DNA of 64,000 nt from Mycobacterium sp. (GTDB lineage Bacteria; Actinomycetota; Actinomycetes; Mycobacteriales; Mycobacteriaceae): contig DATBFF010000222.1 in the NCBI GenBank assembly GCA_036558625.1, positions 1,309-65,308 on the forward strand, in the 5' to 3' direction. The translations under genes and the position numbers were made by a program. Below, one piece after another: positions 4,932 to 59,364 of this stretch (positions are counted from its first letter, which is position 1; each line of letters starts with the position of its first letter). The notes beneath the pieces were generated by a model that ran no database searches, was not told the DNA's origin, and saw only the letters and a list, made by a program, of their open reading frames with translations.

Positions 4932-6352
4932 GCACCCCCGCGGTCGTGATCGCCGCACCCGCGTCGGGCAGCGGCAAGACCACGGTGGCCACCGGCCTGA
5001 TCGGGGCGCTGAGGCGAGCGGGCCGCTCTGTCGCGCCGTTCAAGGTCGGCCCCGACTACATCGACCCCGGCTACCACACGCTGGCCGCGGGCCGGCCCGG
5101 CCGCAACCTGGACCCGGTCCTGGTGGGGGAGCATCTCGTCGGTCCCCTGTTCCGCCATGGTTGTGCCGGTACCGATATCGCCGTTGTCGAGGGCGTCATG
5201 GGACTGTTCGACGGGCGGATCGAGCAGGCGGGCGGAGCCGCACGCGGGTCGACTGCGCACGTCGCGGCGCTACTGGGCGCTCCGGTGTTGCTGGTGGTCG
5301 ATGCGCGAGGGCAGAGCCACAGCATCGCGGCATTGCTGCACGGGTTTGCGACGTTCGACTCCGCGATGCGGATCGGGGGAGTGATCCTCAACCGCGTGGG
5401 CTCGGAGCGCCACGGCAAGGTGCTCCGCCAAGGCTGCGCGCAGGCGGGTGTGCGCGTGCTCGGGTCAATCCCGCGGCATGCCGAATTATCTGTTCCGTCA
5501 AGGTATCTGGGTTTGGTGCCCGCCGCAGAGCAAGGTCGCATGGCCTGCCAGGCGGTCGACGCGATGGCAGACCTCGTTGCCGATCACGTTGACATTGCCG
5601 AAGTCGCGGCTCTCGCCGCCAGTACGGTCACCGCGGCGCCGTGGGAGCCGCCGTTCGAGCGCCCCGTCGCTTCAGCGACTGTCGCCATAGCCGCGGGCAA
5701 GGCGTTCACATTCGGCTATGCCGAGCACGTCGAGCTGCTGCAGGCCGCTGGGGCCGATGTGGTCGGCTTCGACCCGCTCACCGATCCTTTGCCGCAAAAT
5801 GCCGACGCCCTGGTGATCCCCGGTGGTTTCCCAGAGCAGTTCACCGCCGAGCTGTCGGCGAATGACGTTGCGCGCCAGCAGATCCGGGAGCTAGCTGCCA
5901 GCGGTGCACCGATACACGCAGAGTGCGCCGGGCTCACCTACCTGGTGTCAGAACTCGAAGGGCATCCGATGTGCGGCGTGCTATCCGGGTCGGCGCGGTT
6001 CACCGACGGTCTGACGTTGGCCTACCGCGACGCCGTGGCCGTCGCAGACTCTTCGATCCATACCACCGGTGATCGCGTGGTCGGCCACGAATTCCACCGC
6101 ACCACTGTGGAATTCGCCGACGCGTATCCACCGGCATGGGTCTACCAGGGCGAGAAGGCGCCGGTTCGGGACGGCGCGGTCCGGGGCGGCGTGCATGCGT
6201 CGTATCTGCACACGCATCCCGTCGCGGTTCCGCAAGCGGTGGCGCGCTTCGTCGCACAGGCGGCCGCCTCTAGGCTCGGCCCGATGAGCCGCTTGCGCGA
6301 AGAGAATCCAACACCGATGAGCCGCTTGCGCGAAGAGAATTCAATCCAGTGA
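4928..6352 (+). CDS. cobB: Cobyrinate a,c-diamide synthase with repeat-derived C-terminal extension
   Basis: SGSGKTT, FKVGPDYIDP, EGVMGLFDG, AECAGL, GHEFH, ASYLHTH. Ends PMSRLREENPTPMSRLREENSIQ. Confidence 0.95.
   Translation: MSTPAVVIAAPASGSGKTTVATGLIGALRRAGRSVAPFKVGPDYIDPGYHTLAAGRPGRNLDPVLVGEHLVGPLFRHGCAGTDIAVVEGVMGLFDGRIEQAGGAARGSTAHVAALLGAPVLLVVDARGQSHSIAALLHGFATFDSAMRIGGVILNRVGSERHGKVLRQGCAQAGVRVLGSIPRHAELSVPSRYLGLVPAAEQGRMACQAVDAMADLVADHVDIAEVAALAASTVTAAPWEPPFERPVASATVAIAAGKAFTFGYAEHVELLQAAGADVVGFDPLTDPLPQNADALVIPGGFPEQFTAELSANDVARQQIRELAASGAPIHAECAGLTYLVSELEGHPMCGVLSGSARFTDGLTLAYRDAVAVADSSIHTTGDRVVGHEFHRTTVEFADAYPPAWVYQGEKAPVRDGAVRGGVHASYLHTHPVAVPQAVARFVAQAAASRLGPMSRLREENPTPMSRLREENSIQ
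6281..6346 (+). repeat. Two tandem 33-bp copies of the GATGAGC..GCGAAGA element at the cobB/cysG junction
   Basis: ccgatgagccgcttgcgcgaagagaatccaaca followed by ccgatgagccgcttgcgcgaagagaattcaatc. Confidence 0.92.
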
Positions 6353-7576: not shown

Positions 7577-9157
7577 ATGACGGCTCTCAGTGATGCGGAG
7601 CGCGCGACGGTGGTTTCGCGCCGCGAAAGGACTGCTGTCGATCGCGCCAATCAGGCCGCTTTGCAGGCCTCGCAGCGCACTTCCCGGGCTCGTCCCGCGT
7701 GGCTGCCGTCGCGTCGGTTTGTCGCCGCGGTGGTTGCCATCGGAGGCATGCAGCTGCTCGCCACGATGGACAGCACCGTCGCGATCGTCGCGTTGCCGAA
7801 GATCCAGGACGAGCTGAATCTGTCCGACGCCGGTCGCAGCTGGGTGATCACCGCCTACGTGTTGACGTTCGGCGGGCTGATGCTGCTCGGCGGCCGGCTC
7901 GGCGATGCGATCGGCCGCAAGCGCACGTTCATCGCCGGTGTCGCGATGTTCACGATCGCGTCGATCCTCTGCGGCCTGGCGTGGAATGAGCCGACGATGG
8001 TCACCGCGCGGCTGCTGCAGGGCGTCGGCGCTGCTATCGCGTCGCCCACGGCCCTTGCGCTGATCGCGACCACCTTCCCCAAGGGCCCGGCCCGCAACAT
8101 GGCGACCGCAATCTTCGCGGCGATGACGGGCATCGGCTCGGTTATGGGCCTGATCGTCGGCGGCGCCCTGACCGAGGTGTCGTGGCGGTGGGCATTTTTG
8201 ATCAACGTGCCGATCGGGTTGTTGATGGTCTATTTGGCCTACACCACGCTCGTCGAAACGCATCGCGAGCCAATGAAACTCGATGCCACCGGCGCGATCC
8301 TGGCCACGCTGGGCTGCACAGCAGCGGTGTTCGGCTTCTCGATGGGACCGGAGGCGGGCTGGCTGTCACCACTGACGGTCGGCTCCGGCATCGCGGCGCT
8401 GGTGTTCCTCGGCATGTTCGCGATGACGGAACGCACCGCCGAGAACCCGCTGGTACCGCTCGACCTGTTCCGCGACCGCAACCGGGTGGCGACGTTCGCG
8501 GCGATCTTCCTCGCCGGTGGTGTGATGTTCACCCTGACCGTGCTGATCGGCCTGTACGTCCAGGACATCATGGGCTACAGCGCGCTGCGTGCGGGCGTCG
8601 GCTTCATCCCGTTCGTGATCGCGCTGGGCATCGGGCTGGGGATGTCGTCACATCTGGTGTCACAGTTCCCGCCGCGGGTCCTGGTTATCGCAGGCGGCGT
8701 GTTCGTGCTTGGCGCGATGATCTACGGCTCGACGCTCAACGGCGGCATCCCGTACTTCCCCAACCTGGTGCTGCCGATCACGGTCGGTGGGTTCGGCATC
8801 GGCATGATCGTGGTCCCGCTGACTGTGTCCGCGATCGCGGGCGTCGGCTTCGACCGGATCGGACCGGTGTCGGCGATCGCGCTGATGCTGCAGAATCTCG
8901 GCGGCCCGGTGATCCTGGCGATTGTGCAGGCCGTCATCACGTCGCGCACGCTGTACCTCGGCGGTACAACCGGTCCGGTGAAGAACATGAATGCGGCGCA
9001 GTTGCACGCACTCGACCACGGCTACACCTACGGGCTGCTGTGGGTGGCGGGCGTCGCGATCATCGTTGGGGGGGCGGCGTTGTTCATCGGCTACACCTCC
9101 AAAGAGGTGGCGCACGCGCAGGAAGTCAAGGACGCGCTGGACGCCGGAGAGCTTTAG
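7577..9157 (+). CDS. efpA: DHA2/MFS efflux pump EfpA
   Basis: GGMQLLATMDSTVAIVALPKIQ, GGRLGDAIGRKR, multiple TM segments; syntenic between cysG and proS. Confidence 0.9.
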   Translation: MTALSDAERATVVSRRERTAVDRANQAALQASQRTSRARPAWLPSRRFVAAVVAIGGMQLLATMDSTVAIVALPKIQDELNLSDAGRSWVITAYVLTFGGLMLLGGRLGDAIGRKRTFIAGVAMFTIASILCGLAWNEPTMVTARLLQGVGAAIASPTALALIATTFPKGPARNMATAIFAAMTGIGSVMGLIVGGALTEVSWRWAFLINVPIGLLMVYLAYTTLVETHREPMKLDATGAILATLGCTAAVFGFSMGPEAGWLSPLTVGSGIAALVFLGMFAMTERTAENPLVPLDLFRDRNRVATFAAIFLAGGVMFTLTVLIGLYVQDIMGYSALRAGVGFIPFVIALGIGLGMSSHLVSQFPPRVLVIAGGVFVLGAMIYGSTLNGGIPYFPNLVLPITVGGFGIGMIVVPLTVSAIAGVGFDRIGPVSAIALMLQNLGGPVILAIVQAVITSRTLYLGGTTGPVKNMNAAQLHALDHGYTYGLLWVAGVAIIVGGAALFIGYTSKEVAHAQEVKDALDAGEL

Positions 9158-13003: not shown

Positions 13004-13530
13004 TGCGCGGGCTCCTTCAGCGCCAACGGGACCACGGCCGACGTAGCGCACGACGCGGCGATGGAGCCGAGCAGGCCGGCGCGGTATCCGGACACGTTCG
13101 CGGCGAGTTTGGCTGCGCTGTCGGCAGACTCGCGCAGCGCGGCGATGACGTCGCCGCGCGACGGCGGCGGTGACGCAGCAGAGGTGGCCGTGGGAGCCGA
13201 CGGCGGCGGGGTAGTGGCCCCGGCGACGCGGGAGATCTCCTTGGACAGTGCTTTGGCGTGCGCGTCGCGCTCGTTGGCGACCACGTTGAGTAGCGGGGCA
13301 TAGAACACGCCCGCGGCACCCGCTGCCGCACGGGCCATTTGGCTGTCGCGATGAGCCATGTCGAGCTGCGTCATCAGCTCCTCGTCGTGCTGCGTCTCTT
13401 GCGAGCCGCAGCCGGACCCGGTCGCGGCGGCAGCGGTCAGCACGGCTGCACCCACGAGCACGCGGCGCCGGCTGATGCGACGTGCGGCTTCCGACGAGCG
13501 CTCGCGCGGCGAGAAAACAGCCCGAGGCAT
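13000..13530 (-). CDS. Tat-signal lipoprotein-like protein (Rv2843-like)
   Basis: ISRRRVLVGAAVLTAAAATGSGC signal, Ala-rich body, C-terminal AGLLGSIAASC. Confidence 0.72.
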   Translation of the reverse strand: MPRAVFSPRERSSEAARRISRRRVLVGAAVLTAAAATGSGCGSQETQHDEELMTQLDMAHRDSQMARAAAGAAGVFYAPLLNVVANERDAHAKALSKEISRVAGATTPPPSAPTATSAASPPPSRGDVIAALRESADSAAKLAANVSGYRAGLLGSIAASCATSAVVPLALKEPAQ

Positions 13531-18293: not shown

Positions 18294-18324
18294 TGGCCGA
18301 TGAGCGCTCGCGCGAAGAGCAGAC

Positions 18325-18328
<4 letters not shown>
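18293..18328 (+). repeat. GATGAGC..GCGAAGA element forming the 11-codon mini-[14 protein letters not shown] between infB and rbfA
   Basis: GTG shares a base with the infB TAG; its TGA (18326-18328) overlaps the rbfA ATG (18325). Confidence 0.8.
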
Positions 18329-38200: not shown

Positions 38201-39013
38201 TCACTCGTGAATCTGCGACCGTCCCCGCTTGATCACGGCGTCGCGATTGGCGGCGATCGCATCGCTGCGCGCGTGGCTGCGGAGCCATTCGGCGGCAGAG
38301 ATTTGCTCGATCCGAAAACTCGCGTGGGTCTGTGCGTCGTCAATGCGGTGGTACGACGCGAGCAGGGCCCGCACCGCGGCGCGGTTGTTGTCGACGATCG
38401 AGGCGGCGACGGCCTTTGCGGCGTCGAGCAGGTCGTCGTGCAGCACCACCTCGGTGACCAGTCCGACGCGCAGCGCGTCGTAGGCGCCGAGGTAGTCGCC
38501 GGTGAGGCTCATTCGATGAGCCAGCCCACGGCCGACGGCCTGCGGCAACCGCACCGACATTCCCCAGCTCGGCAGCAGCCCCACGCGGGCATGAGTGTCG
38601 GCGAACCGGGCGTTCTCCGAGGCGATCAGAATGTCGCAGCACAGGGCCAACTCGAAGCCGCCGGTGACCGCGACCCCGTTGATGGCACCGATCACCGGTT
38701 TGGTCATCGGCGGCCATGCCGGAGACAGGTCGGGGATACCGCCCCCACCTTTGAGGCCTGGACCGATCTCTTTCAGGTCGATGCCGGCGCAGAAGGCGGG
38801 ATCGGTTCCGGTCAGGATCACCACGTCGACGTCGTCGTCTTCGTCGGCATCGCGTAGGGCGGGAAACAGCTTGTCCCGCAACCCCGTCGACAGCGCGTTG
38901 CGCACATCGGGGCGGTTGACGGTCAGCGTCCGGACCCGGTCGGCGGTTTCGATCAGCAGCACGTCGTCATCGTCTGTCTGCTCTTCGCGCGAGCGCTCAT
39001 CGTCATCAGCCAC
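38201..39013 (-). CDS. Enoyl-CoA hydratase/isomerase family protein (EchA16-like)
   Basis: LTVNRPDVRNAL, AFCAGIDLK, GAINGVAVTGGFELALCCD. Confidence 0.9.
   Translation of the reverse strand: MADDDERSREEQTDDDDVLLIETADRVRTLTVNRPDVRNALSTGLRDKLFPALRDADEDDDVDVVILTGTDPAFCAGIDLKEIGPGLKGGGGIPDLSPAWPPMTKPVIGAINGVAVTGGFELALCCDILIASENARFADTHARVGLLPSWGMSVRLPQAVGRGLAHRMSLTGDYLGAYDALRVGLVTEVVLHDDLLDAAKAVAASIVDNNRAAVRALLASYHRIDDAQTHASFRIEQISAAEWLRSHARSDAIAANRDAVIKRGRSQIHE
38978..39001 (-). repeat. GATGAGC..GCGAAGA element in frame within the echA 5' end (DERSREEQT)
   Basis: Minus strand gatgagcgctcgcgcgaagagcag, identical to the cores at 18299 and 59337. Confidence 0.9.
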
Positions 39014-46263: not shown

Positions 46264-46476
46264 GAATATGGCTCGCCACCAGCGCCGGTGTAGAGTGATG
46301 GCGATCTGAGCCGTCCGGCTCGGGTTCGCATGTCATGACAGTGGCCAGCCTGCGAATCGGGCGGTCTTCGGTAGTGGCTGCCGGATCATCCCGGCCGCTT
46401 CGATCGACGGCCGTATGCCGTTCAGGTTGCTCGCCACTGCCCCGCATCGCGACGACAACTTCAACAAGGGCTTGTT

Positions 46477-57993: not shown

Positions 57994-58794
57994 GTGCCCA
58001 TAGCCATGCCGTATGAGGATCTGCTACGTCTCGCGCTGCAGGCGGGTACGGCGAAATCCGACCGCACCGGCACCGGCACCCGAAGCCTGTTCGGCCAGCA
58101 GATCCGATTCGACCTCTCCGCGGGCTTCCCACTGATCACCACCAAGAAGGTGCACATCAAGTCGGTCGTCTACGAGTTGCTGTGGTTTCTGCGTGGTGAC
58201 AGCAACGTCGGGTGGCTACAGGAGCACGGTGTCACCATTTGGGACGAATGGGCTTCGGAAACAGGCGATCTCGGGCCGATCTATGGGGTGCAGTGGCGGT
58301 CGTGGCCGACGCCGTCCGGCGAGCACATCGACCAGATCAGTGCCGCCCTGCACCTACTGCGCACCGACCCGGACTCGCGGCGGATCATCGTCTCCGCGTG
58401 GAACGTCGCGCAGATCCCGCAGATGGCGCTGGCGCCGTGCCATGCGCTGTTCCAGTTCTATGTCGCCGACGGAAGGCTGAGCTGCCAGCTGTATCAGCGC
58501 AGTGCAGACCTGTTCCTGGGCGTGCCGTTCAACATCGCCAGCTATGCATTGCTGACACACATGATGGCCGCACAAGCCGGCCTCGGCGTCGGCGAATTCG
58601 TCTGGACCGGCGGTGACTGCCACATCTACGACAACCACGTCGAACAGGTCACTGAGCAACTCAGCCGAGAGCCACGGCCCTACCCGGAACTCATGCTCGC
58701 AGAACGTGATTCGCTGTTCGACTACACGTACGACGACGTCACGATCCTCAACTACGACCCGCACCCGGCGATCAAGGCGCCTGTGGCCGTATGA
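57994..58794 (+). CDS. thyA: Thymidylate synthase
   Basis: [44 protein letters not shown]. Start GTG 57994 or ATG 58006. Confidence 0.97.
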
Positions 58795-58823
58795 GGCCTG
58801 CTCGCAGGGCCGAACATCGATGA
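58791..58823 (+). other. Coupled mini-[13 protein letters not shown] bridging thyA and dfrA
   Basis: ATGA overlaps at both ends (58791-58794 and 58820-58823). Confidence 0.6.
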
Positions 58824-59341
58824 AGAGTTCAGTGAGCCTGATCTGGGCTCAGTCGATCTCGGGCGTGATCGGCCGTTCCGGCGACATCCCGTGGCGCCTG
58901 CCCGAGGACATGTCCCGATTCAAGGATCTGACGATGGGTCACACGGTGGTGATGGGCCGGCGCACATGGGAGTCGTTGCCCGACCGGTTCCGGCCGCTGC
59001 CGGGTCGCCGGAATGTCGTACTGACGCGGCAAACCGACTACGCGGCAGAAGGGGCCGAGGTCGTCACGTCGTTCCAGGACGCACTCGCCCTCGACGATGC
59101 TCTTCGCCCGAGAGGCTCATCGGAAGACGACGTGTGGGTGATCGGCGGCGCGGAGATCTACGCGCTCGGTCTGCCACACGCCGCCCGCTGCGAAGTCACC
59201 GAGGTGGACATCCACATGCCTCGCCAGGACGACGACGCCGTCGCACCGGTGCTCGACGAGAGCTGGGTGGCGCACGACGGAGAGTGGCAGGTCAGTCGCA
59301 CCGGCCTGCGCTACCGGTTCAGTAGCTACCGGCGGCGATGA
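58820..59341 (+). CDS. dfrA: Dihydrofolate reductase with an internal loop insertion
   Basis: [47 protein letters not shown]. Confidence 0.96.
59096..59121 (-). repeat. Reverse-orientation GATGAGC..GCGAAGA element inside dfrA
   Basis: Reverse complement gatgagcctctcgggcgaagagcatc; encodes DALRPRGSS in DfrA. Confidence 0.75.
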
Positions 59342-59364
59342 GCGCTCGCGCGAAGAGCAGATGA
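59338..59364 (+). repeat. GATGAGC..GCGAAGA element forming the mini-[11 protein letters not shown] between dfrA and the next gene
   Basis: ATG overlaps the dfrA TGA; its TGA overlaps the ATG at 59361. Confidence 0.85.

Follow-up and report, generated by a model that had tools for sequence, protein, structure and literature searches.

The dihydrofolate reductase gene of the mycobacterium studied here carries, in antisense orientation and in frame, a 33-nt unit of a short repeat family that is dispersed across the genome. The best overall explanation of our data is very probably that this copy is a tolerated passenger at an unstable site. The gene, dfrA, lies in a stretch of 64 000 nt (the window) that belongs to a draft genome, G000, of 4.46 Mb in 264 contigs and 93 % completeness. 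The features at the dfrA locus are as follows.

58006-58794 (start approximate), + strand: thyA (thymidylate synthase), the upstream partner of dfrA, from its ORF.
58820-59341, + strand: dfrA (folA-type dihydrofolate reductase), 173 aa, directly after thyA, from its ORF and translation.
59093-59130, − strand: one 33-nt period with its flanking GACGA direct repeats (59093-59097 and 59126-59130), from the sequence and codon alignments with the genomes G145, G307 and G269.
59098-59121, − strand: the 24-nt core of repeat subfamily C, GATGAGCCTCTCGGGCGAAGAGCA; on the + strand it spans the final two bases of the D93 codon and then A94-S101 (ALRPRGSS).

DfrA matches the Pfam family PF00186 from end to end (145.9 bits against a cut-off of 25, with residues 5-172 on profile positions 2-159), and matches dihydrofolate reductases of the PDB at E=1e-70. 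Residues I23, P24, W25, D30, F34, G109 and G110 are invariant in an alignment of 39 sequences including G000, V107 and I108 are nearly invariant in it (at least 90 %), and the active-site and cofactor motifs are present (the acidic residue of PEDxxxF, IPW and VIGG). A genome-wide profile search of the 93 %-complete draft found dfrA to be its sole PF00186 (DHFR_1) gene, and dN/dS values for dfrA fall between 0.08 and 0.29 whether or not the compared partner has the insert. Both results fit the prediction that DfrA is an NADPH-dependent dihydrofolate reductase, and the dN/dS range points to purifying selection on its gene. The neighbouring thyA shows tblastn identities of 85-91 % to relatives, and a PF00303 gene adjoins dfrA in homologous loci.

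The first-pass annotation had taken the DNA encoding DALRPRGSS for the reverse complement of an interspersed element, and had marked 59096-59121, whose reverse complement is GATGAGCCTCTCGGGCGAAGAGCATC, as the insert. The segment is indeed a true member of the family, antisense and in frame, and identical to the subfamily C core at 24 of 24 nt; the marked stretch is element DNA, but its extent had to be revised, the unit being 33 nt rather than 26 nt long. Two substitutions and one indel separate the dfrA segment from subfamily A (GATGAGCGCTCGCGCGAAGAGCA); the indel is an extra base, which appears because subfamilies A and C differ at that point. The subfamily C core occurs in G000 at 12 places with up to one mismatch, at 20 with up to two (the dfrA copy included) and at 83 with up to three, while the reversed-pattern control for this core gave no match in the same genome. 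An exact match over 24 nt, together with the empty control, thus excludes a chance resemblance.

In comparison with its closest insert-free relatives, the G000 gene has gained exactly 33 nt, or 11 codons. The nearest of these relatives (G145, G307 and G269, with DfrA proteins 81-82 % identical) are 11-12 codons shorter, and the removal of any 33-nt window from the G000 gene leaves a loop as long as SVEDSLVGDDVW in G145 and SLDDALTDDEVW in G269. Against the solved mycobacterial enzymes, G000 DfrA is 7-10 residues longer, with the alignment gap exactly at the insert. Of 45 DfrA loops from the same genus, 41 lack the insert, including three of the six closest relatives, and four are long (G000, G012, G175 and G395), all of them with element DNA in the same orientation and frame. 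The presence of element DNA in every long-loop relative bears out the original reading of an element inserted into the DfrA loop, and no conserved long loop built from diverged, non-matching DNA occurs among them. Among mycobacterial DfrA proteins, the span from PLPGR to IGG varies from 38 to 53 residues, that is, by 15. Unrelated expansions occur elsewhere at the same loop, in a set comprising the L004 (G021) loop and the proteins P0075, P0117, P0119 and P0120: EDGGQERSDSGMDPD, (SSGA)n, NSEANSG (a duplicated NS-x, in P0117), (VSEA)n and TEP repeats.

The number of units at the dfrA site is itself variable. A protein search found environmental (metagenomic) mycobacterial DfrA proteins with one, two, three or four units, and the proteins compared were as follows.

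P0016: no unit; a close relative with an empty site.
P0009 and P0010: one unit each.
P0005: two units.
P0002: four units, (DDALRPSGSSA)n.
P0008 and P0011: one unit each.
P0014: three units.

At the DNA level, P0002 contains four perfect copies of GATGCTCTTCGCCCGAGTGGCTCATCGGCAGAC and P0014 three perfect copies of GTTGCTCTTCGCCCAAGAGGCTCATCGGCCGAT, and the reverse complements of these units, GATGAGCCACTCGGGCGAAGAGCA and GATGAGCCTCTTGGGCGAAGAGCA, are element variants that are also found between genes. From these sequences, the dfrA site behaves as an in-frame variable-number tandem repeat (VNTR) of 0-4 units in related mycobacteria. It resembles the intragenic VNTRs (coding minisatellites) of bacteria in its perfect units, which are arranged head to tail and are a multiple of three nt long, and in a copy number that differs between near-identical genes. 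Unlike those loci, its unit is a copy of a genome-wide dispersed element rather than a local sequence, and its host is a small essential enzyme rather than a surface protein. For enzymology, the proteins form a natural dihydrofolate reductase series with 0, 1, 2, 3 and 4 extra 11-residue units at one site, suited to asking how much length the helix-strand connection tolerates.

With the subfamilies merged, the dispersed family amounts to 255 units at 189 loci in G000, 145 of them single units and the other 44 loci arrays of 2-5, and reversed-pattern controls gave no match in G000 for each of the three subfamilies. Subfamily A (core GATGAGCGCT[C/T]GCGCGAAGAGCA) was found at 102 places and subfamily B (core GATGAGCCGCTTGCGCGAAGAGCA) at 142, both at up to three mismatches, a threshold at which the counts for subfamilies B and C overlap. 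The unit measures 32-33 nt and contains a highly conserved core of 23-24 nt; within the G000 arrays, 39 intervals have a period of 33 nt and 20 a period of 32 nt. An array far exceeding any in G000 is present in a relative from the genus (G044:C95:2362-2977), where at least 19 units of GATGAGCCACTCGGGCGAAGAA stand in tandem with a period of 33 nt. The window itself holds the following further matches.

6282-6346, + strand: two tandem subfamily B units (GATGAGCCGCTTGCGCGAAGAG...), period 33 (nhmmer C222:7590-7621 and 7623-7654).
13492-13518: weak, diverged family match, E=1.4.
18298-18325, + strand: perfect subfamily A copy from the infB stop to the rbfA start (ATG 18325).
38975-39002, − strand: perfect subfamily A copy at the gene junction that precedes an enoyl-CoA hydratase-like ORF.
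59336-59361, + strand: perfect intergenic subfamily A copy, overlapping the dfrA stop TGA (59339-59341) and ending at the ATG (59361) of an AlkZ-like gene.

The three perfect copies (18298, 38975 and 59336) share a sequence of 26-28 nt, CGATGAGCGCTCGCGCGAAGAGCAGA, and each lies just ahead of a start codon. This arrangement is common in the genome: most copies of the element stand at junctions of co-directional genes, GATGA often being the upstream stop codon. On the element's own strand, a long upstream ORF with high GC3 stops at the TGA within GATGAG at 28 loci and in cTGATGAG at 14, and at approximately 100 of 185 loci a same-strand gene starts no more than 40 nt downstream. The 3′ part of the element reads GAAGAG (often GAAGAGGAG), followed after a few bases by ATG, and this GAAGAG(GAG) end looks like a putative ribosome-binding site. 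The junction directly after dfrA forms a series of its own, with an empty site in G269 (cgATGAgccgactg, stop and start overlapping), one unit in G000 and three in G145; at the filled junction between dfrA and the alkZ-like gene, GATGAG is duplicated and stands on both sides. Recognition of the family would help annotation in two ways, by accounting for odd low-complexity loops in conserved proteins and by flagging junction copies that bring stop codons, ribosome-binding sites and start codons.

Several familiar classes of element were considered for the family and set aside. Folding energies of the unit compared with shuffled sequences gave z = +0.13, +0.15, −0.03 and −0.93, with no significant hairpin, and Rfam has no family near the dfrA insert site and none matching the element; the reading as an RNA element was dropped on these grounds. 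The single Rfam match within the window is an Actino-pnp RNA (RF01688) at 46360-46415 on the + strand (52.5 bits). A Y1 (IS200-like, RAYT) transposase, searched for as PF01797, gave no match in the 93 %-complete G000, and a REP/BIME model with RAYT was rejected for lack of both this transposase and a hairpin signal, although a mobilizing enzyme could sit in the missing part of the 264-contig draft. The element does not fit a MITE either: its only terminal feature, the GATG...CATC ends, is limited to the subset of copies that end in GAGCATC, and the repeats at its junctions have no fixed length (about 2 to 6 nt) and correspond to element sequence. The core strings were absent from the open-access literature that we searched, and an open-access search for mycobacterial junction repeats returned typing papers only; the family is apparently undescribed.

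Insertion into coding sequence is not a peculiarity of dfrA. A frame scan of G000 gave approximately 21 loci with an open, high-GC3 frame running through the element, seven of which we checked against the five closest genomes. The clean cases are listed below.

NadE: 33 nt specific to G000, adding GDEPLARREEL (+11 aa), with a native GAAGAG duplicated.
PepN: 33 nt specific to G000, adding DEPPARRPEGS (+11 aa), with a direct repeat of only about 2 nt.
RsmB: 33 nt, adding CADALRASGSS (+11 aa), antisense and in the same frame as in DfrA; in G012 the addition at this site amounts to 21 residues.
Alpha/beta hydrolase: 10 codons added.
Acyl-CoA ligase-like enzyme (C1:5885-5909): 10 codons added, with a perfect 23-nt core in G000.

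By comparison with four to five relatives, at least five other enzymes of G000 contain clean in-frame copies. HelY was left out as ambiguous, its loop length varying across all relatives. For the copy in the ligase-like gene, G145 and G012 have strongly decayed counterparts at an identical codon position, and G307 and G175 have none; such a distribution suggests that an old site was filled anew or underwent gene conversion. The frames used, both in the checked genes and in the other candidates of the scan, are the hydrophilic ones.

Our data are consistent with a model in which a copy would most likely enter a new site by template switching or recombination at 2-6 nt of microhomology with an existing copy or array, a process in which no transposase would be needed and which we infer from a handful of junctions. 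These junctions carry direct repeats of 2-6 nt that match the element (GATGAG, GAAGAG, GACGA and GCATC). The added length is 33 nt, or one period, for four subfamily B/C copies and 30 nt for two subfamily A copies, and the unit can start in any phase. Since five of the six reading frames of the element core are open and 33 nt make 11 codons, insertion where a gene tolerates extra length does no more than lengthen the protein. Once present, units would probably be gained, lost and multiplied (0-4) through slippage at the short direct repeats of the junctions or recombination between them. Repeated insertion could renew the copies, as could gene conversion by copies elsewhere in the genome, which would also be the means of homogenization.

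How often dfrA received the element is a separate question. In the metagenomic proteins, as in G012, G175 and G395, the native xDAL precedes the unit (DAL + RPRGSSxDDAL + ...VW), whereas in G000 the unit stands four codons downstream of that position (QDALALDD + 11 residues + VW), and in P0070, a more distant DfrA with 71 % identity, it is in a third phase. A tree of ThyA, DfrA and a neighbour does not unite the carriers, and groups G000 with the insert-free G307, with bootstraps of 62-98, support that is too weak for the tree to choose between one gain and several. Synonymous divergence between the compared dfrA genes is 0.5-1.9, and the third positions of the eight-codon core are identical at 7/8, 8/8 and 7/8 among G000, G012 and G175, against 0.5-0.6 at comparable codons elsewhere; this test involves only eight codons and non-independent pairs, with P between 0.003 and 0.1. 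The third base is A or T in half of the core codons, and the GC3 of G000 is near 0.8-0.9, which fits a recent non-coding origin. On these comparisons, the element has probably entered a favoured site in dfrA more than once, or been renewed there through gene conversion, rather than arriving in a single old event, and slippage would in addition have added and removed units. For the study of how repeats evolve, the recurrence or homogenization of copies at shared codon positions of sister species provides a way to follow their spread.

A single ancient insertion in the ancestor of a small clade, followed by precise losses in G145, G307 and G269 and by later loop indels that produced the G000 arrangement, is a less likely alternative. 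It would account for the fact that G000, G012, G175 and G395 share subfamily, orientation and frame within 15 nt, flanking direct repeats of 5-12 nt would permit exact loss through slippage, and the core of G395, with only 4/8 identical third positions, has decayed at the background synonymous rate as an old copy should. One old insertion with several precise losses also needs about as many events as recurrent gain. Apart from the non-monophyly of the carriers in the tree, the difficulty lies in the detail of the sequences: two indels that offset each other would be required in G000 to bring DDAL from behind the core to a place ahead of it, whereas one 33-nt insertion four codons downstream gives exactly the native length, synonymous sites in the rest of dfrA are less similar than the cores shared by G000, G012 and G175, and a single event does not predict the further phase of the P0070 unit.

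At up to one mismatch, the B/C core is present in 79 of 151 sampled Mycobacterium genomes, and its copy number is high in a few of them (140 in G145, 133 in G000, 61 in G012 and 58 in G111). A 22-nt core, again at up to one mismatch, occurs in four other families of the order Mycobacteriales (genomes G025, G483, G035, G444, G526, G535, G430, G497 and G577), in low copy and small arrays and with no control matches. Such order-wide conservation is unexpectedly strong for a selfish repeat, and may point to some function or to a system dedicated to its recognition, neither of which forms part of the explanation favoured here. The boldest extrapolation, and a rather improbable one, would be an active, order-wide repeat whose new copies arise in any phase wherever microhomology is present and which, thanks to its 11-codon period and five open frames, routinely remodels the loops of essential enzymes. 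The 0-4-unit polymorphism of dihydrofolate reductase, close to the subdomain hinge, would then alter dynamics or antifolate sensitivity as a natural, reversible length switch in a drug target.

The effect of the insert on the enzyme can be viewed through an AlphaFold2 model of DfrA built with 39 homologues (pLDDT 90.2, pTM 0.85). The model contains a helix at 85-95, a loop at 96-103 (RPRGSSED; pLDDT of the block 78-84) and a strand at 104-108 that leads to IGG. Foldseek comparisons with the M. avium, M. ulcerans and M. tuberculosis enzymes gave TM scores of 0.92-0.94 normalized to the target and 0.85-0.88 normalized to the query, so that the model is confidently one of a dihydrofolate reductase fold. 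In the model, the insert would lengthen the helix by about two residues and supply the connecting loop ahead of the NADPH-binding IGG strand. The first-pass annotation had proposed a surface loop just before IGG, and the predicted position, at the C-terminal end of the helix and in the exposed loop, is in keeping with it. The corresponding connection in Escherichia coli dihydrofolate reductase, at approximately residues 86-89, is presumably remote from the active site, at the opposite end of the beta strand, and near one of two subdomain hinges; by analogy, the insert may affect the dynamics of the enzyme.

Comparison of mycobacterial sequences suggests that the helix-strand connection of dihydrofolate reductase is a general hot spot for length change, and because the DfrA loop already varies by 15 residues, near-neutral tolerance is the most likely state, with the insert probably a near-neutral passenger. 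Very unlikely, in our view, is an adaptive insert, whose copy number near the hinge would tune the dynamics, stability or antifolate sensitivity of the enzyme, or which would act as an antisense RNA or DNA signal. Several lineages have kept the insert in a gene that is essential, present once and subject to purifying selection, five of the six changes in the eight-codon core among carriers are synonymous, and 0 to 4 copies occur among near-identical backgrounds, all of which an adaptive role would explain. Passive tolerance, however, predicts what is found elsewhere in the genome, where at least five unrelated enzymes also contain the element, always in loops or linkers; close relatives do without the insert, and an RNA or signal function is at odds with a unit z of about 0 in folding, the lack of an Rfam match, and a minus strand that offers only an 18-codon frame beginning at the element's ATG.

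That the repeat sequence in dfrA reflects a chance resemblance, or an artefact of assembly or binning in a fragmented draft, is barely conceivable: a profile from subfamily A alone, our nhmmer yardstick until subfamily C was found, scored the site at E=2.8, which is marginal by itself given that the reversed genome yields 13 matches at E up to 10 with that profile, but the exact 24-nt identity to subfamily C with empty controls, the in-frame insertion of exactly one period, and the recurrence of the insert in independent assemblies and in metagenomes of several sources all speak against it.

The tolerated repeat unit that we favour has precedents in each of its separate behaviours. Mycobacterial interspersed repetitive units (MIRUs) lie at junctions of co-directional genes, where they overlap the upstream stop and precede the downstream start (Supply et al. 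1997; PMC3184786), and have units of 46-101 bp at 41 loci in M. tuberculosis H37Rv (PMC3914561). The element described here is found in the same genus and likewise consists of short dispersed junction units that combine stop overlap with a following start, form variable tandem arrays, and show both filled and vacant sites bordered by short direct repeats. At 42 loci the preceding gene stops within GATGAG or cTGATGAG, and copy number varies in arrays of 2-5 units at 44 loci, from 0 to 1 to 3 after dfrA and from 0 to 4 inside it. It differs from MIRUs in its unit size (periods of 32 and 33 nt rather than 46-101 bp), in its approximately 190 loci, in the many copies inside coding sequence in either orientation, and in the presence of its core in other families of the order; the likeness described here is one of arrangement. 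A MIRU-like mini-repeat of mycobacteria is therefore not limited to intergenic DNA, but enters essential enzymes in frame and then behaves, as the dfrA site suggests, as a VNTR.

In-frame insertion has its closest parallel in the Rickettsia palindromic elements (RPEs), palindromic sequences of approximately 100-150 bp that are found in frame in genes (Ogata et al. 2000; PMC10969869, PMC3184786). As with RPEs, one family occurs in frame in several unrelated housekeeping genes (those for DfrA, NadE, PepN, RsmB, the ligase-like enzyme and the hydrolase), adding a peptide at fold-tolerant sites and leaving the host protein intact. In contrast to RPEs, the unit is four times smaller at 33 nt, is not palindromic and lacks a significant hairpin, forms in-frame tandem arrays (0-4), and is mainly intergenic. 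In-frame small repeats and junction repeats that overlap stop and start codons are thus already known, from RPEs and the betaproteobacterial repeat element (BRE) and from MIRUs, respectively; what sets the present family apart is the combination of both behaviours in a much smaller, unstructured unit, together with in-frame tandem expansion in an essential enzyme. BRE and other small repeats have been described as fused to or inside ORFs (Hot et al. 2011; PMC3184786), and the present element shares with BRE the nature of a small, non-autonomous repeat that lies inside protein genes or extends their ends, while differing in phylum, sequence and size, and in having no terminal inverted repeats beyond the GATG...CATC of some copies. 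An example of an extended end is the subfamily C copy at C167:11693-11716, with which a large UvrD/AddA-like helicase ORF ends at its 3′ side, so that the product has a C-terminal tail with the same peptide as in DfrA, DALRPRGSS.
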